A DNA stretch of 24,017 nt from Chromatiales bacterium (GCA_020445565.1 JAGRGI010000157.1:1-24017), one strand, 5' to 3'. Numbered from the stretch's first letter, positions 1 through 23,678 are shown. Program-made: numbers and translations. The notes: generated by a model from the sequence alone, not told the origin.

Positions 1-121
1 TTTTCTGTGGCACTTTCCGTAGGCTCGCGCCCCCCAGGCGTTACCTGGCACCCTGCCCTGTGGAGCCCGGACTTTCCTCCCCATCGCCCGAAGGCGATAC
101 AGCGACTGCCTGGCCGACTTC
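1..121 (-). ncRNA. rnpB: RNase P RNA (M1 RNA, bacterial type A), 5' portion only; the gene continues beyond the window start
   Basis: The reverse complement of 1-121 reads GAAGTCGGCCAGGCAGTCGC...GGGAGGAAAGTCCGGGCTCCACAGGGCAGGGTGCCAGGTAACGCCTGGGGGG...GAAAGTGCCACAGAAAA. This matches the universally conserved P1-P4 region of bacterial RNase P RNA almost base for base (E. coli: GAAGCUGACCAGACAGUCGCC...GGAGGAAAGUCCGGGCUCCAUAGGGCAGGGUGCCAGGUAACGCCUGGGGGGGAAACC). The six-frame ORFs 7..384, 41..388 and 162..371 are therefore spurious. Confidence 0.85.
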
Positions 122-4902: not shown

Positions 4903-4975
4903 CGCGCTGTAGCTCAGTCGGGTAGAGCAACTGGTTCATCACCAGTGGACGAGGGTTCGAGTCCCTCCACCGCAC
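4903..4975 (+). pseudogene. tRNA-like element with CAT anticodon, probable degenerate tRNA (pseudo-tRNA or att remnant)
   Basis: Cloverleaf readable: D arm GCTC/GAGC, perfect anticodon stem ACTGG/CCAGT with loop TTCATCA, perfect T arm GAGGG-TTCGAGT-CCCTC. Defects: the acceptor stem has two mismatches (C1-A72, C5-C68), position 37 is a pyrimidine, and no CCA is encoded. A second isolated T-arm-like fragment (CGGGGTTCGACTCCCCACC) lies at ~5001-5022. Confidence 0.45.
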
Positions 4976-5288
4976 CTCTGGAAAAGGTCTGCAAAACCTC
5001 GGGGTTCGACTCCCCACCTAAACGGCTGGCGACCGTCAAAGCGCCTGGACATGCCCCGGCCGGGGACACCTCACGAGGGAAGAGCCGGCAGCATCGATTC
5101 CGCTTCGTACCGGAACCGCCCCAAACCCGAGCCGACTGGCGAGGGTGATCGTTGTGACAATAGCAGGATGCACGCCGACGACAGGATGTCGGCTCACACG
5201 ACTCCCGAACCGGGTCCGCCGGGCTTGTGCCCTACGGTCCGCGGATCGGTGCGGGGCATGTACACCCCAACAAGAAAGGAGAAGACAG

Positions 5289-11976: not shown

Positions 11977-12273
11977 ATGACGACCCGAAAGAAGTACTCG
12001 AAAGAATTCAAGCTGGACGCTGTGAGCCTGGTCCTGGACCAGGGCTATACGCGCAGAGAGCCGGCCAAGAGCCTGGACGTCAATGAGCAGATGCTCGGTC
12101 GTTGGGTGAAAGAGCACCGGAACAGCGAGGATGGCCAGGCGTTCCGAGGCAATGGCAAGTTGACCCCGGAACAAGAGGAAATCAAAAGGCTGAAGGCGCA
12201 GAACAAGCGCCTTCAGATGGAGAGGGACATCCTAAAAAAAGCGACGGCATTCTTTGCAGCAGAAACGAAGTGA
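11977..12273 (+). CDS. IS3-family transposase OrfA (HTH/leucine-zipper part)
   Basis: MTTRKKYSKEFKLDAVSLV...LKAQNKRLQMERDILKKATAFFA, typical IS3 OrfA ending at the slippery A7G (12234-12241). Confidence 0.85.
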   Translation: MTTRKKYSKEFKLDAVSLVLDQGYTRREPAKSLDVNEQMLGRWVKEHRNSEDGQAFRGNGKLTPEQEEIKRLKAQNKRLQMERDILKKATAFFAAETK

Positions 12274-13147
12274 AATACGCGTTCATCACCCAACACAAGA
12301 ATGCCTACCCGATCAGCCTGCAGTGCCAGGTTTTGGGTGTCAGCCGAAACGGCTATTACCAGCACCGGAAGAACCACGAGGGCAAACCGGAAAACCCGAA
12401 TCACCAGGAGATGATCGAGTGGGTCCAGGATATCGCGAAGAGTTCGGGCGACACCTATGGGAGTCGCCGCATGAAGAAGGCGCTGAATGTGCTGGGCTAC
12501 CCAGTGAGTCGCGGAAAAGCCCGGAAACTGATGCGAGAAGCAAAGGTGCAGGTGCGCCACCGCAAGAAATACAAGGTGACGACGAACAGCAATCACAAGC
12601 AACCGGTTTTGAAAACCTGGTCAAGCGTGATTTCGACATCGACCGGCCGGACCAAGTGTATGCTGCCGATATCACCTACGTCTGGACCCAGGAGGGCTGG
12701 CTCTATCTGGCCGTGGTGATCGACCTGTGCACCCGCAAGGTGGTGGGCTGGAGTATGAGTTCCAGGATGAAGACGCAGCTGGTCTGTGATGCCTTACAGA
12801 TGGCGATCTGGCGTCGCCAGCCCAAGGCGGGACTGATCCACCATTCGGATCGCGGCTCACAGTACGCGAGCAAGGCATTCCGGCGGCTACTGAAGGCTCA
12901 CGGCATTGAGGGCAGTATGAGCCGCAAGGGCGACTGCTGGGACAATGCTGTCGTGGAGAGTTTCTTCGGCACGCTGAAGCAGGAGCGCGTGCAGTGGCGG
13001 AACTACCAGTCCCGCTACGAGGCCCAGCAGGACATCCTGGATTACATCTCGATGTTCTACAACAGTCGCCGCCTGCATTCACACCTGGGCTACATGAGTC
13101 CTAACGACTTTGAACGGCAACTGACAGAGACGAAAAAAGCGGCTTAA
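12234..13147 (+). pseudogene. IS3-family transposase OrfB (DDE integrase core) requiring the programmed -1 frameshift plus one additional frame break
   Basis: After a -1 slip at A7G, the frame-0 reading gives KKSDGILCSRNEVKYAFITQHKNAYPISLQCQVLGVSRNGYY...TTNSNHKQPV (IS3 OrfB N-terminus). The conserved continuation ENLVKRDF...ADITYV...DLCTRKVVGW...HHSDRGSQYAS...DNAVVESFF is in the +2 frame from ~12611. This implies a 1-nt deletion (or a homopolymer sequencing error) in the T-run GTTTTG at ~12606-12611. The ORF-track entries 12102..12719 and 12254..13147 are the two pieces. Confidence 0.6.
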
Positions 13148-13355
13148 CTGGGATGTTACAAAACCCTTGATCACGTCAAGGCGCCCTGTTCGAGGCGCTT
13201 CGGGAGCTTGGCCGCGACAACTCGACCATCTGCCAACTGGTCGACGTCGGCGTAGCTATTTGTGAAGAGGCAGCCGACAAAATCGGAACTGAACAGATCC
13301 ACCTGAGGAACGCCACCGGTTGAGACATCCGTCCGATCCGACAACCTGACCCACC

Positions 13356-13380
13356 AAGCCCGCCACCGAGCGGGCTTTTT
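13356..13380 (+). terminator. rho-independent terminator (member of a repeated hairpin family)
   Basis: AAGCCCGC-CACCGA-GCGGGCTTTTT. Terminates the ~47-codon plus-strand reading frame that begins at the IS3 right end (13180-13323). Confidence 0.55.
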
Positions 13381-13464
13381 CATGCCTGCCCGTCGTGACC
13401 CTAACTAGCCTCAACTGCCGACAACCCTCCTTTAACCCCTGATAACTGGAGAGAGTCCACCACC

Positions 13465-13687: not shown

Positions 13688-13713
13688 AGCCCGCCTGAGT
13701 GCGGGCTTTTTTT
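13688..13713 (+). terminator. rho-independent terminator (hairpin family member) followed by a GGTACCA box
   Basis: AGCCCGC-CTGAGT-GCGGGCTTTTTTT, then GTGGCCGCGGGTACCAG at 13714-13730. This resembles GCGGGCTTTTTCGTGGTCGGGTACCAG at 23428-23455. Confidence 0.6.
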
Positions 13714-13881: not shown

Positions 13882-15288
13882 ATGCTAACTTTGACTAAAT
13901 TTTCAGTTGAAACACCGATGAAGATCCCCCAAACACCACCTTCCTGGCAGCTGCTTTTATTGGAAACAGAGAACCTCCAACCGATCCTGGAGCTAGATCC
14001 GTTGGTGGGGGGGTGCTATCTGCACTGGGACGAGTTACGGCACCGCACTCCCCCGGAAGGTTTGTCGCATGAGGCATGGTGGACGGGGGTACGATTCGCC
14101 AGAGAGGGTATGTTGCGATCGCTTCCATTCCAGGACAAGCATGGTAAACCCATCCGGTTTGGTGTGCCGGATCCCGTGCTACGCAGTCTGCACGCCATTG
14201 ATCAGCGGGCGGCGGGCAATGTAGAAATGGCATCGCCTATTGTCTCAGGTGACGACCGGAACCGCTATCTGGTGAGCTCTCTTATTGAGGAAGCAATAAC
14301 GTCCAGTCAGCTGGAAGGCGCTGCGACGACGCGCGAACAGGCCAAAGCGATGCTGCGTAGCGGTCGCCAACCTCGCGACCGGTCGGAGCGAATGATTCTG
14401 AACAACTATCACGCCATGGAGGCGATTAGGGACATCCGCGACCGGCAATTGACACCGCAACTGGTCTACGAATTGCATCGAATTGTTACTGAAGGGACAC
14501 TGGACGATCCCAGCGCAGCAGGGCGGTTGCGAAAACCAGACGAGCGGGTCAATGTCGTAACTTCGGACCACGCGACCATACTCCATCAACCACCAGACGC
14601 AACGTCGCTTCCACAGCGAATGGATGACCTTTGTCGCTTTGCCAACGCGGATGCTGCTGCCGAAGAGGCGTTCGTACATCCCGTCATTCGCGCCATCCTG
14701 CTGCATTACATGCTGGGCTACGATCACCCCTTCGTGGACGGTAACGGGCGAACTGCTCGCGCGTTGGTTTACTGGAGCCTAGCGCGCTCCCGCTATTGGC
14801 TGATGGAGTATGTTTCTATTTCGAGACTCCTGAAATTGGCACCTGCGAAGTACGCACGCGCATACCTGCATACCGAGACAGATGGCAATGACACAACCTA
14901 TTTCATCATTCATCAACTGGACGTCATTGAACACGCTATCAGCGCGCTGCATGAATACTTGGACCGGAAGATAGCAGAAGAACGAAATGCAGAAGCCCTG
15001 TTGCGGCATACGCCACATTTGTCAGACCAACTAAACCATCGTCAGGTAGCTCTGCTGACGCACGCATTGAGGCATGCCCAACATGGCTATACAGTGGAAA
15101 GCCACAAGCGTTCACACCGGGTCACCCACCAAACTGCGCGAACCGATCTGCAACAACTAATGGATCTGGGCTTACTGGACAAGGGGAAGCGCGGGCGTGC
15201 TTTTGTCTTCTATGCGCCGGATGACTTGAGAATGCGTATTGAGCAAGCAGCTAGTTCAACAGCAAGTCGGCATATTCATGCTCCCTAG
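13882..15288 (+). CDS. Fic-family protein (AMPylation-type Fic core with N-terminal inhibitory helix and C-terminal winged-HTH)
   Basis: Canonical Fic motif HPFVDGNGRTAR. Upstream SSQLEG fits the autoinhibitory (S/T)xxxE(G/N) motif. ~470 aa with a C-terminal DNA-binding-like tail. Alternative start ATG 13918 (MKIPQ...). Local GC is clearly lower than in the surrounding genes. Confidence 0.85.
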   Translation: MLTLTKFSVETPMKIPQTPPSWQLLLLETENLQPILELDPLVGGCYLHWDELRHRTPPEGLSHEAWWTGVRFAREGMLRSLPFQDKHGKPIRFGVPDPVLRSLHAIDQRAAGNVEMASPIVSGDDRNRYLVSSLIEEAITSSQLEGAATTREQAKAMLRSGRQPRDRSERMILNNYHAMEAIRDIRDRQLTPQLVYELHRIVTEGTLDDPSAAGRLRKPDERVNVVTSDHATILHQPPDATSLPQRMDDLCRFANADAAAEEAFVHPVIRAILLHYMLGYDHPFVDGNGRTARALVYWSLARSRYWLMEYVSISRLLKLAPAKYARAYLHTETDGNDTTYFIIHQLDVIEHAISALHEYLDRKIAEERNAEALLRHTPHLSDQLNHRQVALLTHALRHAQHGYTVESHKRSHRVTHQTARTDLQQLMDLGLLDKGKRGRAFVFYAPDDLRMRIEQAASSTASRHIHAP

Positions 15289-15392
15289 AGTATACGAATG
15301 CAGCGAATTAGTGATCGCCCGATTTGCGCATTCGTAAACGCCCCTCCTCAGCTGCAACACACACGCCGAGTGAGATTGAACCCGCCTCATAC

Positions 15393-15418
15393 AAGCCCGC
15401 CGCTGTGCGGACTTTTTC
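15393..15418 (+). terminator. rho-independent terminator, near-identical copy of the hairpin at 23414
   Basis: AAGCCCGC-CGCTGT-GCGGACTTTTTCGTG versus AAGCCCGC-CGCTGT-GCGGGCTTTTTCGTG at 23414-23441. Confidence 0.55.
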
Positions 15419-15533
15419 GTGCCGGCAGGGGGCCGGGCCGGATTCAGAAAATTTGCTTACACAGGCGCTTACATTGCGCCAGAACCGGCCGCATTCACGC
15501 CGGCCGAAATCCATGTAATTTATTGTTTTTATT

Positions 15534-15582
15534 TGGTAGGCCCGGCAGGACTTGAACCTGCGACCAAGGGATTATGAGTCCC
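15534..15582 (-). repeat. 49-nt direct repeat of the 3' part of tRNA-Ile2 (att core duplicate, distal junction of the island)
   Basis: TGGTAGGCCCGGCAGGACTtGAACCTGCGACCAAGGGATTATGAGTCCC matches 23602-23650 with one mismatch. It covers the CCA end through the anticodon stem, then the sequences diverge. Confidence 0.8.
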
Positions 15583-15630
15583 ACGCCCCCATAAACAAAA
15601 ACAGTGCTTTAGAATCCATTCTTCGTCTTG

Positions 15631-15649
15631 GGTACCAATTCAGGTACCA
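15631..15649 (+). promoter_or_regulatory. arm-type GGTACCA direct repeats next to the distal att junction (a third copy at 15753-15759 just upstream of the int start)
   Basis: GGGTACCAATTCAGGTACCATCG. The same heptamer is repeated five times at 23447-23531. Confidence 0.35.
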
Positions 15650-15763
15650 TCGCGCTATAGTTTCCACACGCGAAACGACGCTAACGCACGCGCCTTTTTA
15701 AAGGTGTCCCAAGGGGCTGCCACCCCAAGGGACATCGCCGACCACCCGCTGAGGTACCAGCCG

Positions 15764-16861
15764 ATGGCGACCATTACCAAGGTAACCCGCAAAACCGGGA
15801 CCGTCTACAAGGCCCGCGTTCGCCGCGAGGGCCAGCCCCAGGTATCCAAAACCTTCACCAACAAGTCGGACGCCCTGAAATGGGCGCGCGCGTTCGAAGT
15901 GGACTTGGAACGGGACCATGCCGGCCTGATCCCCGAGGGCCAGCGTCACACCCTGGCTGAAGCCGTCAAGAAGTACCGGGCGGAAGTCCTCCCCGAGCTG
16001 CGACCCGAGACCGCCAAGAAGTACTCCGCGCACCTGGACTACTGGGCCGCCGAACTGGGAGGCCCGGCCCTTTCGGAAATTGCGCCCCGCATGATCTCCA
16101 AGGCGCGGGACTCACTGACCCAGTCCGGGAAGTCTCCCGCCACGGTAAACCGATACCTGGCCACCCTGGCAAGCCTGCTGACGGCCGCCGTGAAGCGCTG
16201 GCACTGGCTCCCGGATTCTCCGATGCGGGGCGTTCGCAAGCTGACGGAAGCCAACGCGGGGACTCGGTTCCTGTCCGAGTCCGAGTTATCCCACCTGTTG
16301 GCCGCCTGCGGGGAGTCTTCCAACCCCGATCTATTGCCCGCCGTGCTGCTGTCGGTCACGACTGGAGCCCGCCGTGGGGAAATCATGGGACTCCGCTGGA
16401 AAGACCTCGATCTGAAGGCCGGTGTCGTTCGGCTGCGCGTGGACAACGAGACGTCGACCAAGGGCGGTATCCGTTCGCTACCCCTGGTCCCTCAAGTCCT
16501 GGAGATCCTGAAGGAACGCCACGAGGCTGCGAAGGAGGCCAAGGTTCGGCCGCTACGGGCAGAAGACGAACTGGTCTTCCCGTCCAAGGTTTCCCGGCAC
16601 CAACCGATTGATCTGCGGAAACCGTTCGAGTCTGCATTGCGCCGGGCGGGTATCGACCATTTTCGCTGGCATGACATGCGCCACAGCGCGGCGTCCTTCC
16701 TGGCCGCCCACGGAGCGAGCCTACTGGAGATCGGAGAGGTACTGGGGCACAAGAACGCGGCAACGACGAAACGCTATGCCCACCTGGTGCAGCAACGAAC
16801 CGATGATTTAGTGCGGGTGGTGGCCGCGAAGATTCTGGGCGAAAAAGGCGAAGACCGGTGA
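15764..16861 (+). CDS. int: tyrosine site-specific integrase (P4 / CP4-57 type)
   Basis: ATG at 15764. N-terminal SAM-like domain (KTGTVYKARVRREGQ...KTFTNKSDALKWARAFE). C-terminal catalytic R...HxxR...Y (GARRGEIMGLRWKDL; HDMRHSAASF; TKRYAH). The ORF-track start 15704 is an upstream extension. Confidence 0.9.
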   Translation: MATITKVTRKTGTVYKARVRREGQPQVSKTFTNKSDALKWARAFEVDLERDHAGLIPEGQRHTLAEAVKKYRAEVLPELRPETAKKYSAHLDYWAAELGGPALSEIAPRMISKARDSLTQSGKSPATVNRYLATLASLLTAAVKRWHWLPDSPMRGVRKLTEANAGTRFLSESELSHLLAACGESSNPDLLPAVLLSVTTGARRGEIMGLRWKDLDLKAGVVRLRVDNETSTKGGIRSLPLVPQVLEILKERHEAAKEAKVRPLRAEDELVFPSKVSRHQPIDLRKPFESALRRAGIDHFRWHDMRHSAASFLAAHGASLLEIGEVLGHKNAATTKRYAHLVQQRTDDLVRVVAAKILGEKGEDR

Positions 16862-17700
16862 CCAAAGACGAAGCAAGGGAACTTGCCGAGAAGTTTCTTC
16901 GGGAGATGTTGGCCTACAACGTGGAACACGAGATTTGGCCGGCCGAAAACGCTGTGATAAGGCGAATGCTTAATCGGCGTGAACCATATTGGCCAGAACT
17001 TCCAAAATACTACGCGGCCGTATATGGGCCGCTGCTTACAACCGAAGGAAATCGAGTCATGGAGGCAATGGTCTCCGCCGTCGTTGCCTTCTCGATCAGC
17101 AATACTACCCAGCTCAGAAACCAGTTGAAGATAGCCGCTGCGCTGTCGGAAGAGATCGCCCAACATGCAGCCGAAATTGCCCGGCTCATTAGGGAGCGGG
17201 TGGAAAATTGCCCTGACGTATCGCAGCCACCGGGATGTCACCCGTTAAACCTAATCGAGCTGGCTGCCGAATGCTCCGGCACTCGGTTCAGGTTCGAAAG
17301 CTGGGTAAGACCAGCACTACGGAAGGCCCGATCCTTCGATTCGAGGTACTGGCCGGACATACCTGAACTGTTGGAAGCGCTGGCGAAAATGGAGCTGGAT
17401 CACCGCCACGAATTGTTGTGCATGCCGTTGGCCGCCGCTGTATATGTGAACCGCGAGTCAGCGGCTGATGTTGTCCGCGTGGTGCTAGCCTGCTTGGACG
17501 AACTGATACTGGAAACCAGATACAGCGGTGGCGAGTTGTGCAGGGCGAACCCGGCCGCGCTCAAACTATCCAACGCGGCGATTGCTGCATTCCTGAATGG
17601 AACAATCTCGCCGGAACAGCCATTTACGGAAGAAAGCGTACGGAAGCGCCGCAAAGATTACGACACGAGGATTCGCGATTCCCTGTTCGGTATCGAATAG
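16858..17700 (+). CDS. hypothetical protein (280 aa), translationally coupled to int; candidate accessory cargo
   Basis: GTG start overlaps the int stop (GTGA). No recognisable motif. GC markedly lower (~50-55 percent by eye) than the host-like genes. Confidence 0.5.
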   Translation: MTKDEARELAEKFLREMLAYNVEHEIWPAENAVIRRMLNRREPYWPELPKYYAAVYGPLLTTEGNRVMEAMVSAVVAFSISNTTQLRNQLKIAAALSEEIAQHAAEIARLIRERVENCPDVSQPPGCHPLNLIELAAECSGTRFRFESWVRPALRKARSFDSRYWPDIPELLEALAKMELDHRHELLCMPLAAAVYVNRESAADVVRVVLACLDELILETRYSGGELCRANPAALKLSNAAIAAFLNGTISPEQPFTEESVRKRRKDYDTRIRDSLFGIE

Positions 17701-17706
17701 GCAGGC

Positions 17707-17759
17707 GGACACTCGCCGCCCCAAAATAAATTTTAGTGTCCGGGACGGGGCCGGACACT
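17707..17759 (+). promoter_or_regulatory. GGACACT / AGTGTCC / GGACACT repeat set flanking an AT-rich box upstream of the xis-primase-helicase operon
   Basis: GGACACT (17707-17713), inverted AGTGTCC (17735-17741), GGACACT (17753-17759), with AAAATAAATTTTA between. Looks like an operator/promoter. Confidence 0.3.
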
Positions 17760-17831
17760 CGCCCGCACCATGCGCCGTACCGACGCCAAAAGACGCGCGT
17801 CATTCATGTAACGACACTTTGAGGCGCAAAA

Positions 17832-18065
17832 ATGAATGCTTCCCCGCGCAAGTGGCGCTCCGTAGCCGCACTCGCCGAAGTCATTAACAACGGAGCTGAA
17901 CACAAAACCCTGACCGACCATGCAATTCGGCATCTGGTCCGCAAGGCGGATACGAACGGTCTTGATGAACACGTTCGCCGGCTTGGGCGGAAGGTCCTTA
18001 TCGATGAGAACGGATTTCGGAATTGGCTGGATCGGACCTTGGCCGGCAATAGTCGGCCCGCCTGA
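17832..18065 (+). CDS. AlpA/Xis-family excisionase-like small DNA-binding protein
   Basis: 77 aa. GAGG 7 nt upstream. MerR-like/excisionase HTH pattern (KTLTDHAIRHLVRKADTNGLDEHVRRLGRKVLIDENGFRNWL). Its stop overlaps the next start (TGATG). Confidence 0.65.
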   Translation: MNASPRKWRSVAALAEVINNGAEHKTLTDHAIRHLVRKADTNGLDEHVRRLGRKVLIDENGFRNWLDRTLAGNSRPA

Positions 18066-18739
18066 TGGATCCCGAAAATGATCACGCCCGCCCCGGTGAC
18101 CAGACCGGGAGCGGGAGCGGGCGCGGATATAGCGATACTGGATGTGCGACCGGCAATCGAGATCATACCGCGCGCAGCTCCGCCAAGCCAAGCCGTGGTG
18201 CCTTCCGGCACGATTGGCTTCGCGCTCCCGCAGACTATTACGAATCCGAAGGGCTACGGTTGGTCGGCGCGGGGCCTTGGCGCTCGGGGCTGTGCGTCTT
18301 CCACGACGAAACCACCGAATCCCTGCGCGTCAACATCGAACACGGCGGTTATCGCTGTATGGGCTGTGGTGAAACAGGGGGCGATATCCTGGCGTTTCAC
18401 ATGGCGCGCTACGGACTGACCTTCGTCGAAGCCGCGAAGGCTCTGGGGGCGTGGGACGAAGGAGCGGCCGCGCCGCCGCGCCAACCTCAGCCGTTCGGCA
18501 TGTCTCCCGCCGAGTTGGATGACGTGTTGTTCATCGAGCTGCATGTGCTCTTGCAGTGTGTCTCCCGTCGTCGATCTGATCGGCTCTCCCCGCGACTGGG
18601 GCCGATGCCGCCCGAGTGGCGCGCGGAACCGCCCGCTTCTGGCTATTGGCCGCGCGAATTGAAGGCCGCGACCCGCGTCGAGAAATTGTTGGGGGCAATC
18701 TACAGTGACGAACTCCGGGGGGTGTCGCCGTGTCGATGA
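18065..18739 (+). CDS. DNA primase CHC2-type zinc-finger domain protein (no recognisable TOPRIM catalytic domain)
   Basis: CVFHDETTESLRVNIEHGGYRCMGCGETGGDILAFHMARYGLTFVEAAKAL is the zf-CHC2 signature of DnaG/P4-alpha primases. Low-complexity Gly/Ser N-terminus. ATGA overlap with the helicase gene. Confidence 0.7.
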   Translation: MDPENDHARPGDQTGSGSGRGYSDTGCATGNRDHTARSSAKPSRGAFRHDWLRAPADYYESEGLRLVGAGPWRSGLCVFHDETTESLRVNIEHGGYRCMGCGETGGDILAFHMARYGLTFVEAAKALGAWDEGAAAPPRQPQPFGMSPAELDDVLFIELHVLLQCVSRRRSDRLSPRLGPMPPEWRAEPPASGYWPRELKAATRVEKLLGAIYSDELRGVSPCR

Positions 18740-19971
18740 GCCTGGACGAACAGCACCGCCGCTTGGATCGTGTGGCGGAAAAAACGGCGCGGCTGGATTC
18801 GGATGAAACACCCAGAGCCGAACGGGCAAACGCAGCTACTACCGGCCAAGTATCCACAGGTGCGCTGCTGGATGAGGATGACGGGCCGTCGCCCCCGGCT
18901 CTCGCAAGCGAATCATGGGCCACCCTCGCGGCGCGAGAGTTTGGGCCGGTCCGCTGGATCGTCGAGGACTACCTGCCGCCGGGTGTCACGCTACTCGTCG
19001 CGCCACCCAAGGCCGGGAAGTCCTGGATGGTGCTGTCCATCATCCTCTTGGTACTGGCGCGCCGGCCCGTGTGGGGACGGCGCACCTGCGGGGGCGAGGC
19101 CCTGTACTTGGCGCTGGAGGATTCGGCGCGGCGACTCCAGGCCCGGACACGGACACTCCAGCGTATCCACGGTCTGGTGGATGACGACATCCGAGGGTTC
19201 CGACACGCGCTCGATGCGCCCCGTATGGACCGGGGTCTGGATGCGGTGCTGGTGGACCACATGGACCGCTACCCGGATACCCGCCTGGTCGTCATCGATG
19301 TGCTGGCGCGGGTCCGCCGACCGCGCAACCCCAGCGAGGGCATGTACGACTGGGACTACATGACCACCGGCGCATTCCGGGAGCTGGCCGCGCAGTACCC
19401 CGCCCTGGCCATCATCCTGGTGCACCACGCGAACAAGTCGGGGGACGATGGACTGACCGCCGTCAGCGGCACCCACGGGCTGGCAGCCGGCGCCGATAAC
19501 GTGCTCACGATCATGCGGACAGCCAACGGCCCCGAACTGCACATCCACGGGCGGGACATCGCGGACAGCGAGCCGATCCCGCTGCCCCGGGATGAGGCTG
19601 GTATGTGGACGCTGGAGTCCCGCGATAGCGCCACGGCCGCGCAGATGAGCGACACGCGGGCGTTGATTCTCGATGCGATACGGGCCGGCGCCGAAACCCC
19701 GAAGGAGATCGCGGCAGAGGCGGACCTGGCACAGACGACCGTGGACGCACAACTGCGCCGCCTGCGCAAACAGGGTGAGGTCATTCAGCCGGCGCGGGGA
19801 AGCTACGCGCTACCGCCGGATACTGATCCATACGCCCCCCGTACCTACCCCCCCCATATGGATAGTATGGAGAGTATGGGAGGTGACCATATCGCCCCGC
19901 CCGTCCATACGGTCCATACCGTCCATACGGGGGGAGGGGTAGAGGATGGTATGGACGGGGAGGCTTTCTGA
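18736..19971 (+). CDS. RepA/DnaB-like P-loop ATPase (AAA_25-type replicative helicase module) with C-terminal winged-HTH and a repeat-encoded tail
   Basis: Walker A APPKAGKS, Walker B LVVIDVLARV, LVHHANKSG. C-terminal wHTH (ILDAIRAGAETPKEIAAEADLAQTTVDAQLRRLRKQGEV). The tail ...MDSMESMGGD...VHTVHTVHTGG is dictated by DNA iterons. Start taken at ATG 18736 (ATGA coupling). Confidence 0.75.
   Translation: MSLDEQHRRLDRVAEKTARLDSDETPRAERANAATTGQVSTGALLDEDDGPSPPALASESWATLAAREFGPVRWIVEDYLPPGVTLLVAPPKAGKSWMVLSIILLVLARRPVWGRRTCGGEALYLALEDSARRLQARTRTLQRIHGLVDDDIRGFRHALDAPRMDRGLDAVLVDHMDRYPDTRLVVIDVLARVRRPRNPSEGMYDWDYMTTGAFRELAAQYPALAIILVHHANKSGDDGLTAVSGTHGLAAGADNVLTIMRTANGPELHIHGRDIADSEPIPLPRDEAGMWTLESRDSATAAQMSDTRALILDAIRAGAETPKEIAAEADLAQTTVDAQLRRLRKQGEVIQPARGSYALPPDTDPYAPRTYPPHMDSMESMGGDHIAPPVHTVHTVHTGGGVEDGMDGEAF
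19828..19928 (+). repeat. inverted arrays of 9-bp-period iterons inside the helicase 3' end; candidate replication origin
   Basis: TCCATACG (19828), then ATATGGATA / GTATGGAGA / GTATGGGAG (19856-19880), a degenerate CCATATCG, then GTCCATACG / GTCCATACC / GTCCATACG (19903-19929). That is three direct repeats facing three inverted copies of the same 7-mer. Confidence 0.6.
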
Positions 19972-19973
19972 TC

Positions 19974-20303
19974 ATGGATCCCCTCGAAGAGCTGACCGCA
20001 GCCGGCCTGACGCTGACCGCCAAGGGTACGTGCCTGATCGCCACTCCCCGTGCCCGGATTACCGACCGCTGTCGCGAACTGATTCACCGGCACAAACCCG
20101 AGTTGCTGGCCCTCCTGTCTCCGGGCCCGTTACCCGTTCGCGAGGGGCGGTCAATCGGTCGCTGGCTCGCCCACATCGGCGAGAACGACCCACAGACCCG
20201 CGCCGACGTGCTGGCGCAGTGCGAACGGGATATCTCTGCGAGGACTTACTTCCTGGCGCGGGCTGCCGAGGTGCGGCCTGCGGGGGAATGTCGTGGCCGT
20301 TGA
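19974..20303 (+). CDS. hypothetical protein (109 aa)
   Basis: ATG 3 nt after the helicase stop. No motif recognised. Confidence 0.45.
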   Translation: MDPLEELTAAGLTLTAKGTCLIATPRARITDRCRELIHRHKPELLALLSPGPLPVREGRSIGRWLAHIGENDPQTRADVLAQCERDISARTYFLARAAEVRPAGECRGR

Positions 20304-20382
20304 GTTTTGTCGCGGCCTATCGAATTTGGGCGACCGGCTTTGGGTCCTTCCCCCGAAAAAGCCGGCACACGAGCGCGTAGAT

Positions 20383-20404
20383 CGCGGATTTTCCGCCTTT
20401 TTTT
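20383..20404 (+). terminator. probable rho-independent terminator
   Basis: GCGGA-TTT-TCCGC followed by CTTTTTTTGG. Confidence 0.4.
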
Positions 20405-20436
20405 GGCCCTATGTGGGGGTGTCCATGTCTGTTGGT

Positions 20437-20550
20437 GGGTTTTATGCCCTGTAACTGCTGGTTTTCACTTGGTTTTTTAACCCATAGATGGGCGCGCCGA
20501 AATAGCCATGGTTTGCGGCGGCTGGCCTATCCGAGATTGGAGGTTTTTTT
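20437..20550 (+). repeat. cluster of TGGTTTT direct repeats in the intergenic/promoter region
   Basis: TGGGTTTTA (20437), CTGGTTTTCAC (20458), TTGGTTTTTTA (20469), ATGGTTTGCGG (20508), GGAGGTTTTTTT (20539, which includes the RBS). Confidence 0.3.
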
Positions 20551-21039
20551 ATGTTCGAGTGCCTGAACAAGCCGGCCACGCAACGCGAGTTCGGCGACCT
20601 GATCGGCATCGCAAAACAGAACGTCTCCAAGGCATTCCTGGCGGGCGCCCTGCCGCCCGGCGGGACCCTGCGGGACTGGTTGCTGGCCTATTGCGACCGG
20701 TTACGGGGTGTCGCCGACGTGCGGGGCGGCGACGACCAGCGGGCGTTGACTCGCGCCCGGACGGAACTGGCTCTGACCGACGCCGAGGGAAAACGGCGCG
20801 CCCTGCTCCGCGAGGCCGACCGCCTGGCGGAGGTGGAATGGGTGCGGGAGGCCCTGGACGGCTGGGAGTCCGTCGGGCTGGCCTCCCTCGCAAAAGCTGA
20901 AGAGCGGATGGCTGCCGAACTGGCATCGCGAGGTGTCGAGGATGTCGGGTTCATCCGTGAGGCCCTGCGGGCGGTCACCGAAGAACTGGCAACACGCCCG
21001 GCGCCCCTCCAACGCACGCGAGAGGAGCCCGCGCCATGA
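20551..21039 (+). CDS. N-terminal HTH protein with charged coiled-coil C-terminus; possibly phage small-terminase-like (Nu1-type) or a regulator
   Basis: GGAGG 7 nt upstream. N-terminus NKPATQREFGDLIGIAKQNVSKAFLAGALPPGG is an HTH. Ala/Arg/Glu-rich helical remainder. The terminase assignment is by architecture only. Confidence 0.5.
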   Translation: MFECLNKPATQREFGDLIGIAKQNVSKAFLAGALPPGGTLRDWLLAYCDRLRGVADVRGGDDQRALTRARTELALTDAEGKRRALLREADRLAEVEWVREALDGWESVGLASLAKAEERMAAELASRGVEDVGFIREALRAVTEELATRPAPLQRTREEPAP

Positions 21040-21380
21040 AGCCCAAACGCAAGGGGCGGTCGCTGCCGGTCTATCCCGTCCGCCTGCATACCCTGGCGGA
21101 ACTGTTCTGCCTGGACCTGGACCGGCTGCCGGACGGGTCCGTGGGCGTCCGCTTTCGGCGGGGGGTTTCTGCTCAGACGCGCAACCGCGTGGTGAGGCAG
21201 TTATTCCCGCCGGCCGCTGGGGCACCCCCGACAAGCTGCCCGCTGCCCCATACCCCCAGGCTACGGACCATAGCGGGTAGGATCGCCCGAAAAAATCTGA
21301 CTCCATTGGAGCGCGCCCGCCAGATCATCGACGAGATGGCGGAATGTCCCGGCGCGTGTGATCGCCGAGACACCCTGTAA
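21036..21380 (+). CDS. hypothetical protein (114 aa), ATGA-coupled to the upstream gene
   Basis: Start overlaps the previous stop. Basic N-terminus. No motif recognised. Confidence 0.45.
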   Translation: MKPKRKGRSLPVYPVRLHTLAELFCLDLDRLPDGSVGVRFRRGVSAQTRNRVVRQLFPPAAGAPPTSCPLPHTPRLRTIAGRIARKNLTPLERARQIIDEMAECPGACDRRDTL

Positions 21381-21407
21381 CCCCAACACTACCGAGAGGT
21401 ACCGGAA

Positions 21408-21974
21408 ATGACGAAAGAACTCGACCAAGCCACCGCCGATGTGATGGCTATCGCCGTGAAACTGAAGGCCGCTCGTGATCGCCGCAGGGCAATGACCGAG
21501 CGGCGTGAAACGGCTGCCGCCAAGTTGGTTACTGCCGTTGCTGACAAGGACCAAGCCGTAGTCCGCTACGCCACTGGGGAAATTGACGAAACCGAACTGG
21601 AGGGCGCAACGAAGTCCGTCCGCCTGCTGGAGGCTGAAATTGAGGGCTTGGACGCGACCTTGACCGCGATTGAGGGCGTGATTGAAGGGTTGGAATCCGA
21701 TTGCAAAGAACCCGAGGAGCTGGCCCTGCGTAGTTTCTGGGCTGCATGGGAGGAGGAGGCCAAGAAGGCCGAAGCGCGGCTTCTGAACGCGATGATGGAA
21801 CCGGCTCTGCACGCATGGGCTGCGTACAAGACCCGGCACCACAGAAGCTACGGCGGAACCCTCTCGTTTGCCGAGTACATCGAAAACCTGTGTCGCAAGG
21901 CCAACATCCGCGAGCCCAAGTTGGGCAAGGTCCAATTGCCGACGGTGGCCCCGACGGCATCCAATGTGATCTAA
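21408..21974 (+). CDS. hypothetical acidic coiled-coil protein (188 aa)
   Basis: GAGAGG RBS 8 nt upstream of ATG. Glu/Ala-rich heptad-like sequence. No motif recognised. Confidence 0.5.
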   Translation: MTKELDQATADVMAIAVKLKAARDRRRAMTERRETAAAKLVTAVADKDQAVVRYATGEIDETELEGATKSVRLLEAEIEGLDATLTAIEGVIEGLESDCKEPEELALRSFWAAWEEEAKKAEARLLNAMMEPALHAWAAYKTRHHRSYGGTLSFAEYIENLCRKANIREPKLGKVQLPTVAPTASNVI

Positions 21975-21988
21975 CGGCGCTTGGCGCC

Positions 21989-22075
21989 AACGTTTAAGGC
22001 GAGCCGCGCGGGGGCTCCCGTCCCTCAACACCTCCGGGGGCGGGAGGCAGCCACCAGCCGTGCGGCTCGCCGCCT
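21989..22075 (+). repeat. structured hairpin repeat unit 1 (candidate ncRNA or protein-binding hairpin)
   Basis: AACGTTTAAGGCGAG CCGCGCGG ... loop CAACACCTCC ... CCACCAGCCGTGCGGCTCGCCGCCT. 14-bp outer stem GGCGAGCCGCGCGG / CCGTGCGGCTCGCC (one G-U pair) plus an inner stem. Confidence 0.5.
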
Positions 22076-22107
22076 ATCCCACGTGATGTGCAATTCTGCG
22101 CATCGCA

Positions 22108-22193
22108 AACGTTTAGGCGAGTTGCGCGGGGTCACTACCCGCAGTAACACCTCCCGGAGTGGTGACCGCCACCAGCCGCGCAACTCGCCGCCT
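22108..22193 (+). repeat. structured hairpin repeat unit 2 (diverged copy with compensatory stem changes)
   Basis: AACGTTTAGGCGAG TTGCGCGG ... inner stem GGTCAC/GTGACC ... loop TAACACCTCC ... CCACCAGCCGCGCAACTCGCCGCCT. The CC to TT change in the 5' arm is matched by GG to AA in the 3' arm. Confidence 0.5.
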
Positions 22194-22222
22194 CTTCCAT
22201 GCCGGTTTCCAGGGTTTACCCC

Positions 22223-22249
22223 TGCGATCGTTGCGATTCTTGCGATCAT
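22223..22249 (+). repeat. three tandem 9-bp iterons (TGCGATCGT / TGCGATTCT / TGCGATCAT) overlapping a -35 box
   Basis: Read directly from the sequence. Confidence 0.5.
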
Positions 22250-22268
22250 TGGGGACCTGGCGTACTCT
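22240..22268 (+). promoter_or_regulatory. putative sigma70 promoter (TTGCGA - 17 nt - TACTCT)
   Basis: -35 at 22240-22245 lies inside the third iteron. -10 at 22263-22268. Confidence 0.4.
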
Positions 22269-22274
22269 CAAGCT

Positions 22275-22349
22275 GTCCCCGACGCATCGGGGCCGGGATT
22301 ACCACCCCGGTTCAGACCAGAAGGCCGAAACCGCTTTGGCGGTTTTTTC
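22275..22349 (+). ncRNA. candidate ~75-nt sRNA or attenuator (promoter, two hairpins, intrinsic terminator)
   Basis: Hairpins CCCCGACGCATCGGGG and CCGGGATTACCACCCCGG, then the terminator AACCGC-TTTG-GCGGTTTTTT. Followed by a further structured leader (GGCCGTCTTCGGACGGGCC with a UUCG tetraloop, and a repeated GATTACCACC motif) before the next CDS. Confidence 0.3.
22327..22349 (+). terminator. rho-independent terminator
   Basis: AACCGC-TTTG-GCGGTT followed by TTTTTT. Confidence 0.55.
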
Positions 22350-22502
22350 GTGCTCGCCGTTTATTTGGCGGGACGTGTGGGGCCGTCTTCGGACGGGCCG
22401 GCATCCTTCTGGGCCGGTTGTGGTAACCCCGCACGGACCGCCACCCTTCCCGATTACCACCGGGCGTGGCGGTTACACTTCAACCAGAAGGAGACCGACA
22501 AC

Positions 22503-22961
22503 ATGACCCAGCAGTCATACCGTATCACCGGCCGCGAACCCCTGGCCTACAGACTGACCAAGGACCGCCACGGCAACCCGCTGGCCACGATTGAAAACTT
22601 CCCCGGTTTGCACGCGGACCTGACGCCAGACCAATTGCGGGACTTTGCGCTGGCACTGACCGCAATCAGCTACGAAAGCCAGCACCCGGAAACGCACCTG
22701 GGTTCCGTGCCGCTCACGCGGGATGTGCTGATCGAAGCCACCAACTATGCTGACATTGGGCAATCCGTTTTCTCGCTGCTGGGTGCGTTGTTTACCGCGA
22801 TCCGTGCGGACCTTCCAGACTACTCGCAGGGCAACAAGTTGGCAGCCATCGGGGAAGATAGGTGCGAAGCGTATTGCGCTGTTTTCGAAGGGCAATCGGA
22901 GACACTAACCGCCGCACTGAAAGCCGCGTCAAAGCCGCAACGGGAGGGCGAAGCGCGGTGA
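22503..22961 (+). CDS. hypothetical protein (152 aa)
   Basis: ATG at 22503 with AAGGAG 9 nt upstream. The upstream part of ORF 21981..22961 is the structured non-coding region. A perfect hairpin GATACCG-agatcc-CGGTATC overlaps the stop. Confidence 0.55.
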   Translation: MTQQSYRITGREPLAYRLTKDRHGNPLATIENFPGLHADLTPDQLRDFALALTAISYESQHPETHLGSVPLTRDVLIEATNYADIGQSVFSLLGALFTAIRADLPDYSQGNKLAAIGEDRCEAYCAVFEGQSETLTAALKAASKPQREGEAR

Positions 22962-23157
22962 TACCGAGATCCCGGTATCACACGCATCCCTCGCGCGGGG
23001 GGCGGGGCCAAAGCCTTGACGGGCTTGGCCCCAAAGCAGGAATTCCCGCTTTGGGGCCAAGGGCCAGTGGCCGGTACTCGCCTCAAACTTGGTGAGTGAA
23101 TTCACGGTTGACCACGAAAAGCCAAACACGGCATCAACAATCGGGAGATACCGAACT

Positions 23158-23358
23158 ATGGCCTTGGGCTGGATCTTCATAGCGCTTTACGTCGCCACCG
23201 CGATTTCCCTGTGGTGGCTCGCTCACCCGTTGGTGACGGTTGTAATGCTGGCCCTACTGGTTCGCTTCATCTACCGCGTGGTCACCGGCAAGGCGGACAT
23301 GCGCACGGGCGGGGGGACTTGGCTGAACGCCTGGACCTATCGGTCGCCCGAAAGGTAG
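23158..23358 (+). CDS. small two-TM membrane protein (66 aa)
   Basis: ATG at 23158 with GGGAGA 10 nt upstream. Two hydrophobic helices (LGWIFIALYVATAISLWWLA; LVTVVMLALLVRFIY). Preceded by inverted repeats GGCCCCAAAGC...GCTTTGGGGCC (23029-23060). Confidence 0.5.
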   Translation: MALGWIFIALYVATAISLWWLAHPLVTVVMLALLVRFIYRVVTGKADMRTGGGTWLNAWTYRSPER

Positions 23359-23377
23359 TTGCCGCCAGACGAAATTA

Positions 23378-23400
23378 AAAACCGGTAGATCTTCGGTTTT
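23378..23400. terminator. bidirectional intrinsic terminator hairpin (AAAACCG...CGGTTTT)
   Basis: AAAAACCG-GTAGATCTT-CGGTTTT. Confidence 0.55.
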
Positions 23401-23413
23401 GAATCCAACCAAC

Positions 23414-23438
23414 AAGCCCGCCGCTGTGCGGGCTTTTT
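23414..23438 (+). terminator. rho-independent terminator (hairpin family member shared with 15393, 13356 and 13688)
   Basis: AAGCCCGC-CGCTGT-GCGGGCTTTTT. Confidence 0.55.
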
Positions 23439-23446
23439 CGTGGTCG

Positions 23447-23538
23447 GGTACCAGTAGGTACCACTTCAGGAAACGCGACTACCAAGCCTGCGCCGGTAGC
23501 CGGGTACCAGCGGGTACCAATTTGGGTACCACTTGAGG
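23447..23538 (+). promoter_or_regulatory. five GGTACCA arm-type direct repeats between the island genes and the tRNA att site (putative integrase/Xis arm-binding sites)
   Basis: GGTACCA at 23447, 23457, 23503, 23513 and 23525. Two occur as GGTACCACTT(C/G)AGG. Confidence 0.4.
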
Positions 23539-23601
23539 GCGCGTTTCAGGCGAAATGCGGCTAATCCATGCGCCTTGATGCGAGGCAAGTTGTTGATTAT
23601 A

Positions 23602-23678
<77 letters not shown>

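Follow-up and report, generated by a model that had tools for sequence, protein, structure and literature searches.

In this work, we analysed a 24-kb stretch of DNA (the window) from a metagenome-assembled genome annotated as Chromatiales bacterium, focusing on the tRNA-proximal end of an integrase-bearing island. With a probability of roughly 0.6, we consider the region at 22.2-23.45 kb to be an antisense-RNA-gated switch operon, of the same kind as seqA-CI-seqC of satellite P4, immI of phages P1/P7 and isrK-orf45-anrP of Gifsy-1. The first-pass annotation had described this end of the island as a cargo module of three orphan proteins with a layout resembling abortive-infection or toxin systems; the supposed defence cargo is more likely to serve life-cycle control than to be a new immune system. 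The regulatory core belongs to the known C4/CI/IsrK antisense switches; its payload is an orphan one, and the backbone of the island is not that of P4.

The central element of the region is a C4/CI-type antisense RNA at 22361-22448 (plus strand), which matched Rfam family RF01695 along the whole model (positions 1-87 of 87) with 70.5 bits, the gathering score being 45 bits. According to the C4 consensus structure, segment b' is located in a hairpin loop (22404-22412) and segment a' in a single-stranded joint (22420-22426). Segment b' is exactly complementary to CCAGAAGGA (box b2, 22484-22492; 9 nt) and to CCAGAAGG (box b1, 22317-22324; 8 nt), and segment a' is complementary to the 7-nt sequence TTACCAC, present both at 22299-22305 (box a1) and at 22454-22460 (box a2). 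The target boxes a2 and b2 occupy 22454-22492 of the plus strand, with exact complementarity of 7 and 9 nt, respectively. Box b2 extends into the Shine-Dalgarno sequence GGAG (22490-22493) of an open reading frame (ORF) encoding 152 amino acids (aa), 9 nt before its ATG at 22503, and the duplex predicted between C4 and its target over 22483-22497 has an energy of -20.5 kcal/mol. When the flanks were subjected to 20,000 dinucleotide shuffles, the pattern of four boxes did not arise once, and the sequences of the a and b boxes have no further copy in the window. The region does contain a canonical C4 RNA, whose boxes lie on the ribosome-binding site of the 152-aa ORF in the same geometry as in P4.

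Directly 5' of C4, we detected an IsrK/seqA-like leader (22275-22349, plus strand; 40.0 bits with the isrK model and 18.9 bits with c4-a1b1, both sub-threshold). It bears boxes a1 and b1 as well as an intrinsic terminator of its own (22324-22349). A candidate promoter, TTGCGA-17 nt-TACTCT, was read by eye at 22241-22269. It overlaps three tandem 9-bp repeats of the form TGCGATnnT on the plus strand (repeats at 22223-22258; 22223-22269 with the overlapping promoter), which may represent an operator or iterons. Within the repeats, TGCGATCGT, TGCGATTCT and TGCGATCAT, there are GATC sites, and the overlap with the switch promoter concerns its candidate -35 box. The structured RNA region pointed out in the first-pass annotation is not a new regulator; it consists of a canonical C4 antisense RNA preceded by an IsrK/seqA-like leader. 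The control at the RNA level that had been suggested for the 152-aa protein and the 66-aa protein encoded after it agrees with C4 and with the boxes placed over the ribosome-binding site of the former.

The gated 152-aa gene (22503-22961, plus strand) encodes an N-terminal beta-beta-beta-alpha domain (residues ~10-60) followed by a unique helical C-terminus. The proteins of this end of the island were searched in a k-mer-indexed set of 5.8e9 proteins, by exhaustive HMMER over 1.84 billion representatives, by tblastn against 50,697 phage records and against the Pfam, PHROGs, NCBIfam and PADLOC-DB v2 profile libraries. As previously claimed, the three proteins (188, 152 and 66 aa) are devoid of recognisable motifs: no match above noise came from Pfam, PHROGs, NCBIfam or PADLOC, each protein retrieved nothing but itself from the set of 5.8 billion proteins, tblastn found nothing for the 152-aa and 188-aa proteins in the phage records, and searches of PDB by sequence and profile yielded only spurious low-complexity matches. 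The claim of orphan status has a single exception, residues ~10-60 of the 152-aa protein, which match about 19 small proteins.

These relatives, found by exhaustive HMMER with E values from 2e-7 to 8e-4, cover residues ~10-60 only and comprise ~18 small proteins (50-107 aa) and one protein of 167 aa. They share the motif TxDRHGxPLAxVxNFPGxxA[DE][ML]xPxQLR and are related to phrog_6604, which has no known function. Most of them consist of this domain alone, and the 152-aa protein adds about 90 unique residues to it. AlphaFold supplied with the family alignment predicted a confident three-stranded sheet and a helix, with predicted local distance difference test (pLDDT) values of 83-96 in blocks covering residues 11-60, followed by two less confident helices. 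Foldseek with this model returned nothing below E 0.2, and for a HicB/UPF0150- or YegP-like beta3-alpha domain no significant structural or profile match of the N-terminal domain was obtained. A family search with a degenerate DNA pattern gave no hit in genome representatives, none in IMG/VR and seven in JGI metagenomes, none of the seven with C4. Members of the family reside in phages, Mu-like elements and plasmid-like contigs, within early/leading-type arrays of small ORFs. On metagenome contigs L014/L015, L016, L047 and L050, for example, the DRHG-PLA-NFPG family occurs at or near the start of such arrays, and genes nearby encode a resolvase and topoisomerase III, MuA/MuB-like proteins or a P4-type primase (Toprim_3/VapE-like/DUF5906). 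Early or anti-defence genes of mobile elements typically occupy such positions.

The second gated gene (23158-23358, plus strand) encodes a basic membrane protein of 66 aa, in which hydropathy indicates probably two transmembrane helices and a cytoplasmic basic tail. The two-helix topology proposed earlier fits the sequence: a hydrophobic stretch extends over residues 2-42, interrupted at His23-Pro24, and the protein ends in a basic C-terminal tail. The protein matched only itself, with no family match in Pfam, PHROGs, PADLOC or NCBIfam. Its build fits a membrane hairpin such as those of small holins, Kil-type proteins or type I toxins; when it was compared with class II holins and small toxins, small size, two transmembrane helices and the charged tail all agreed. 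An endolysin was found nowhere in the island by Pfam and PHROGs profiles. The gap of 196 nt between the 152-aa and 66-aa genes is structured and free of U-tracts, with three to four GC-rich hairpins or palindromes at 22955-23100 (plus strand; folding z-score -5.97). Since this spacer contains no U-tracts, co-transcription of both genes is likely; the spacer itself could stabilise RNA, attenuate transcription or bind a protein. It also holds a perfect palindrome around an EcoRI site, GGCCCCAAAGC-AGGAATTCCC-GCTTTGGGGCC. Behind the 66-aa gene, folding bore out the two strong terminators previously placed near the attachment (att) site, which is itself real. The terminators are plus-strand hairpins at 23378-23400 and at 23414-23435, the latter with a U-run (to 23439) and being a repeated element that is present also at 15391-15421.

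The following model is proposed for the switch. A transcript from the promoter near 22241-22269 would begin with the IsrK/seqA-like leader, carrying a1, b1 and the terminator. Transcripts reading through this terminator would carry C4, and, as the P1 and P4 systems suggest, a stable RNA of ~80 nt might be excised from them by RNase P together with further nucleases. As judged from complementarity, the b' loop and a' joint of C4 would then pair with b2 and a2 and repress translation of the 152-aa protein, with Rho-dependent polarity likely extending the repression onto the 66-aa gene. The short leader RNA, bearing the same boxes, could titrate C4, as the Gifsy-1 and P4 systems suggest. The operon would thus be off in an established island, and on whenever output of the leader or of the transcript exceeds C4, for instance upon entry, induction or helper activity. 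By position, the gated genes would correspond to eta/epsilon/orf151 of P4, icd/ant of P1 and orf45/anrP of Gifsy-1. This correspondence suggests an anti-regulator or helper-manipulating protein accompanied by a Kil/Icd-like or holin-like membrane effector; speculatively, the 152-aa protein may be the anti-regulator and the 66-aa protein the effector released on island activation. As for the presumed processing, the window itself contains at positions 1-121 (minus strand) the 5' part of a bacterial class A RNase P RNA (109.5 bits), truncated by the edge of the window; processing of C4 RNA would be expected to fall to RNase P.

Several observations weigh against the antisense-switch reading. The leader scores lie below the Rfam gathering scores (40.0 vs 50 bits for isrK, RF01394; 18.9 vs 46.7 bits for c4-a1b1, RF03163), and the candidate promoter is weak and was missed by a consensus scan. 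Among ~16 other distinct contexts of the N-terminal domain family, C4 was present only at the Methylobacter locus described below. Neither the 152-aa nor the 66-aa protein shows similarity to Ant, Icd, AnrP, epsilon, eta, orf151 or any P4 protein. Finally, the switch is located downstream of the replication genes and gates two small genes, and it cannot provide replication immunity in the P4 sense.

The first-pass expectation of a defence module survives best among the alternatives, although we regard it as unlikely. According to it, the 152-aa and 66-aa genes would form an accessory abortive-infection, toxin or anti-phage module in which C4 acts as an antitoxin-like brake and infection frees the membrane protein to kill or arrest the cell. 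The location itself was borne out, as the island is satellite-like and integrase-bounded and the genes do occupy its variable, tRNA-proximal end; moreover, related backbones are devoid of the module, marking it as accessory, and in an apparently decayed island copy next door the equivalent position is taken by a SoFic-like Fic gene. What the location promised was not accompanied by any defence or toxin signature: PADLOC, Pfam and NCBIfam gave no match to a defence or toxin family, and neither the 152-aa nor the 66-aa protein matched a PADLOC-DB v2 defence profile. The 66-aa protein has the two transmembrane helices and basic tail typical of small membrane toxins and holins, yet C4 targets the ribosome-binding site of the soluble 152-aa ORF and not the membrane-protein gene. 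Similarly, payloads of known C4/IsrK-gated loci are often toxic, for example Icd, Kil or the cascade from AnrP to AntQ (PMC8201110, PMC4825925), but in every studied case the same RNA device is a life-cycle switch. The origin of C4 and its target from the same transcript and the stability of C4-type RNAs would, as judged from P1 and P4, also be a misfit with the logic of a labile antitoxin. Structure and profile searches placed none of the proteins with defence systems, toxins, Psu or Sid, and relatives emerged solely for the N-terminal domain of the 152-aa protein. Assignment of the proteins to Psu- or Sid-like satellite proteins, which had been named as the outcome speaking against a defence role, did not come about; it was the regulatory RNA that was assigned to a known satellite regulatory system.

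A more far-reaching variant, which we hold to be rather unlikely and offer only tentatively, is that the C4-gated pair constitutes a hitherto undescribed effector system. The phrog_6604-like beta3-alpha domain would then define a new class of anti-regulators (anti-repressors or anti-defence proteins) of phages, plasmids and satellites, and the 66-aa protein would be a membrane executioner freed by the RNA switch, i.e. a satellite-encoded device for abortive infection or helper control. In the same scheme, two paralogous hairpins upstream of the switch (see below) would be new trans-acting RNAs and not origin elements.

It is improbable, in our opinion, that the C4 RNA itself is the key product, targeting in trans the matching a/b boxes of some helper phage or competing satellite (heteroimmunity, helper sensing or interference), with the ORFs being minor passengers such as a membrane exclusion protein. 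P1/P7 heteroimmunity involves trans-acting C4 RNAs. The C4/CI RNAs of P1, P7 and P4 are trans-acting immunity factors (PMC5499578, PMC4825925), and no protein repressor was recognised in the island, both of which would suit such a role; however, both box pairs are located in cis with P4-like geometry, which suffices for autoregulation, and the box sequences occur at no other site of the window.

The presence of three ORFs at 21408-21974 (188 aa), 22503-22961 (152 aa) and 23158-23358 (66 aa) agrees with the first-pass annotation, and the same three genes were called by independent gene callers on metagenome copies of the region. The GC content at third codon positions (GC3) of the 188-, 152- and 66-aa ORFs reached 0.71, 0.71 and 0.84, respectively, compared with 0.73-0.80 in host genes, and each ORF is preceded by a Shine-Dalgarno sequence at 9-10 nt. 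That some or all of these ORFs are non-functional, the region consisting of RNA or replication cis-elements and chance ORFs, is highly improbable: the proteins are orphans, GC-rich DNA yields many long ORFs and the copies provide no variation from which selection could be gauged (the ten metagenome copies are ~100% identical), but GC3 is coding-like, Shine-Dalgarno motifs are correctly spaced, the 152-aa N-terminal domain has significant homologues and folds at pLDDT 83-96, b2 lies exactly on the Shine-Dalgarno sequence of this ORF and the 66-aa ORF has a coherent transmembrane pattern.

The 188-aa protein had originally been counted to the same module as the two gated proteins. This grouping does not hold, as the 188-aa gene (21408-21974, plus strand) belongs to an upstream operon composed of genes for proteins of 162, 114 and 188 aa. 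The first of them (20551-21039, plus strand) encodes a protein resembling the terminase small subunit (TerS; phrog_57, E 1.3e-6, nearly full length), for which no Pfam or PDB match was found. The second (21036-21380, plus strand) is a basic 114-aa ORF (isoelectric point 11.2, GC3 0.77), supported by the ORF list and metagenome gene calls. The stop codon of the 162-aa gene overlaps the start of the 114-aa gene in ATGA, and the 188-aa gene begins 27 nt past the stop codon of the latter; it is because of this overlap and short gap that we regard the 188-aa gene as the last of the TerS-like operon. The protein was announced as an acidic coiled coil, of which the acidity is only mild (isoelectric point 5.4), while a long antiparallel helical hairpin was indeed predicted, confidently at residues 2-97, with the C-terminal half poorly predicted. 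Its identity with Psu was considered and rejected, since the model matched coiled-coil hairpins in their thousands but did not match Psu; no resemblance to Sid, Delta or Psu of P4 was found, and in PADLOC only a noise-level match to the LmuB coiled coil appeared (E 0.027). Solely its position suggests a role in packaging or capsid hijack.

Two hairpins of 95-100 nt lie between the 188-aa gene and the RNA switch. Repeat 1 (21985-22085, plus strand) has a 14-bp outer stem formed by 21998-22011 and 22058-22071 and ends in ...CCA at its 3' side; repeat 2 (22104-22203, plus strand) lies 118 nt downstream of it. The repeats differ by compensatory stem changes (CC..GG to TT..AA), they have a conserved loop AACACCTCC and a conserved bulge CCACCAGCC, and both finish in ...CCA. 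The sequence AACACCUCC in the loop is anti-Shine-Dalgarno-like and conserved in both repeats. In two metagenome variants, linked C>G changes were observed at 22150 (loop) and 22170 (bulge). The hairpins matched no Rfam family at E <= 1, STAXI included, and neither loop nor bulge had detectable targets in cis. They may represent RNAs or a replication cis-element resembling crr of P4. The latter is a serious alternative to RNA, since the P4 genome contains two 120-bp direct repeats (crr) as well as tandem ori repeats.

The island as a whole is delimited by two copies of the att core and spans ~8 kb. The distal boundary, attL (15529-15582), is a 54-nt copy of the 3' part of a tRNA, present as a direct repeat 96% identical to 23597-23650; the att repeat had just these two matches in the window and none in shuffles. 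The integration site is a tRNA(CAU) gene at 23602-23678 (minus strand; called as Met by ARAGORN, 72.2 bits with the Rfam tRNA model), which contains the CAU anticodon, overlaps the att core at 23597-23650 and adjoins the 3' end of an rpoD-like gene. Repeats of arm type with the sequence GGTACCA sit inside both island ends (23447-23535, with a matching copy at 15630-15649). A second tRNA(CAU) gene is located at 4903-4976 (plus strand), with no island beside it. All island genes are on the plus strand. The integrase gene (15704-16861; Pfam 1.8e-29) follows attL; then come a 280-aa ORF, a 77-aa ORF, genes for a CHC2 zinc-ribbon protein and an AAA_25 helicase with a winged helix, a 109-aa ORF, the 162-aa TerS-like gene, the 114-aa ORF and finally the genes for the 188-, 152- and 66-aa proteins. 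Of the generic hallmarks of satellites of the phage-inducible chromosomal island type, the integrase, the att repeats at a tRNA gene, the CHC2 zinc ribbon and the AAA_25 helicase are clear; the TerS call rests on the one PHROG match (1.3e-6). A divergent master repressor was not recognised by Pfam and PHROGs profiles of the island proteins. One metagenome contig of 8,097 bp (SRR17907852_263456) corresponds exactly to 15553-23650 of the window, starting and ending at the two att-core copies, and several other contigs end at 23650 or 23651. Contig ends at the att core match the assembly graph that would be expected if alternative junctions (empty site, excised circle) coexisted.

Among 185,579 species genomes, the relatives of the helicase were mostly actinobacterial and only 29-36% identical. 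Synteny in related islands, recommended for examination in the first-pass annotation, could be followed in a single gammaproteobacterial backbone relative found, Halieaceae bacterium WMMBA4 (JAWMQO010000002.1, 1411-7864), which combines a tRNA gene, an integrase (41% identity), a homologue of the 77-aa protein and a helicase (29%); C4 RNA and the orphan proteins of 188, 152 and 66 aa are all absent from this locus.

Just left of attL, a gene for a 468-aa Fic-domain protein is located at 13882-15288 (plus strand). It matched the SoFic model of PADLOC with 4.2e-43 and stayed far under the NCBIfam equivalog cut-off. The sequence between this gene and attL (15340-15528) resembles the right end of the island, containing the same terminator and patches of similarity, and from this resemblance we suggest that a decayed tandem island lies next door, its tRNA-proximal slot holding a defence-type (SoFic-like Fic) gene. 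The terminator-like element AGCCCGCnnnnnnGCGGGCTTTTT is present in four copies (13354-13384, 13688-13711, 15391-15421 and 23412-23442) that are 81-97% alike; it may be an element similar to repetitive extragenic palindromes or form the conserved ends of related islands. Between a host phosphomannomutase-like gene and the Fic gene, two overlapping ORFs at 12102-13147 (plus strand) resemble an IS3-family transposase (orfA/orfB, frameshift), as seen on reading their translation.

These findings reveal an antisense switch of P4/P1 type, with conserved box geometry, in a small island from an uncultured Chromatiales bacterium, the proteins of the island being unrelated to those of P4. Because the switch occurs in an unrelated backbone, it looks like a portable module which satellites and phages join to differing payloads. 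Through antisense pairing, two orphan genes have become amenable to testing, and a small uncharacterised protein domain of phages and other mobile genetic elements has now been encountered twice under C4 control. They also advise caution in the mining of defence islands, for the genes that a satellite carries at its cargo end do not all serve defence; the actual defence-like gene, the SoFic-like Fic gene, is found next door in the apparently decayed tandem island.

When the known switches are compared, the N-terminal domain of the 152-aa protein leads to two kinds of relatives. The first is the locus of Methylobacter sp. BlB1, where isrK (61.3 bits) and C4 (67.9 bits) are followed by ORFs of 63, 89 and 167 aa. 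The a-box is present on both sides of C4 and the b-box just 5' of a Shine-Dalgarno sequence, and the third ORF (WP_194970584.1) shares the DRHG-PLA-NFPG N-terminal domain with the 152-aa protein (pairwise E 6e-12). Unlike in the island, the domain gene is the third and not the first in its operon, and no membrane protein is encoded there. Homology of the C-terminus of the 152-aa protein with the phrog_16078-type domain of the Methylobacter protein was also considered and rejected (hhalign probability 0.25%). The second kind is represented by phrog_6604-related small early proteins of phages and other mobile elements, which share the beta3-alpha domain and sit in early/leading-type arrays without C4.

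The closest counterpart in architecture is the P4 immunity region. Scanning of the fetched P4 genome with the same Rfam models gave 74.9 bits for C4, 60.8 for isrK and 44.1 for c4-a1b1, i.e. the same families in the same order (isrK/c4-a1b1, then C4) as in the island. The lengths of boxes are identical in both (a 7/7 nt, b 8/9 nt), a2 starts 5 nt after the 3' end of C4 in P4 and 6 nt in the island, b2 starts 36 nt after it in both, and b2 abuts the Shine-Dalgarno sequence of the next ORF, GGAGG in P4 and GGAG in the island. On the basis of these matching lengths and offsets, we equate the island architecture with seqA-CI-seqC; the RNA-based immunity module of P4-like satellites is present in the island. 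The gap between leader and C4 differs, amounting to 12 nt in the island and ~107 nt in P4. Like P4, the island is a small integrase-bearing element residing in a tRNA gene and possessing its own primase and helicase. In P4, the order is PLE-seqA-CI RNA-seqC-eta/epsilon/orf151/alpha, with epsilon, orf151, orf106 and alpha following C4, whereas the island switch lies after the replication and packaging genes, proximal to the att site, and gates only two orphan genes. Furthermore, no island protein resembles any P4 protein (alpha, sid, delta, psu, epsilon), and the hallmark proteins of P4-like satellites, namely the alpha primase-helicase, sid, delta, psu and epsilon, were not encountered in the island. 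The RNA device is common to P4 and the island, while the island backbone is not P4-like.

With immI of P1/P7 (a1 b1-c4-a2 b2-icd-ant1/2), the island would share co-transcription of C4 with its target, two-box pairing that blocks the ribosome-binding site of the first downstream ORF and a payload composed of a small effector pair; in P1, cell arrest is caused by Icd, and Ant serves as an anti-regulator (PMC8201110). The antirepressor Ant of P1 is controlled by C4 and Icd, and Icd blocks cell division (PMC8201110). In contrast, the island payload is unrelated in sequence, its second gene encodes a membrane protein, and the host element is an integrated island of 8 kb as opposed to a plasmid prophage of 94 kb (P1). 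The isrK-orf45-anrP locus of Gifsy-1 in Salmonella resembles the island in having a leader small RNA with its own terminator, read-through of which produces mRNA; as in our model of the island, a C4-like processed RNA (STnc1160) lies downstream and the first ORF is gated at the level of translation. In structure, IsrK is homologous to P4 seqA, and both the antirepressor-like AnrP and prophage induction are under the control of the Gifsy-1 locus, whose output is toxic (PMC4825925). The island differs in that its leader scores below the isrK gathering score and that AnrP/AntQ homologues are absent. Both CI and C4 RNAs are substrates of RNase P (PMC5499578), and it is life-cycle genes rather than defence systems that the C4 device gates in P1, P4 and Gifsy-1 (PMC8201110, PMC4825925).

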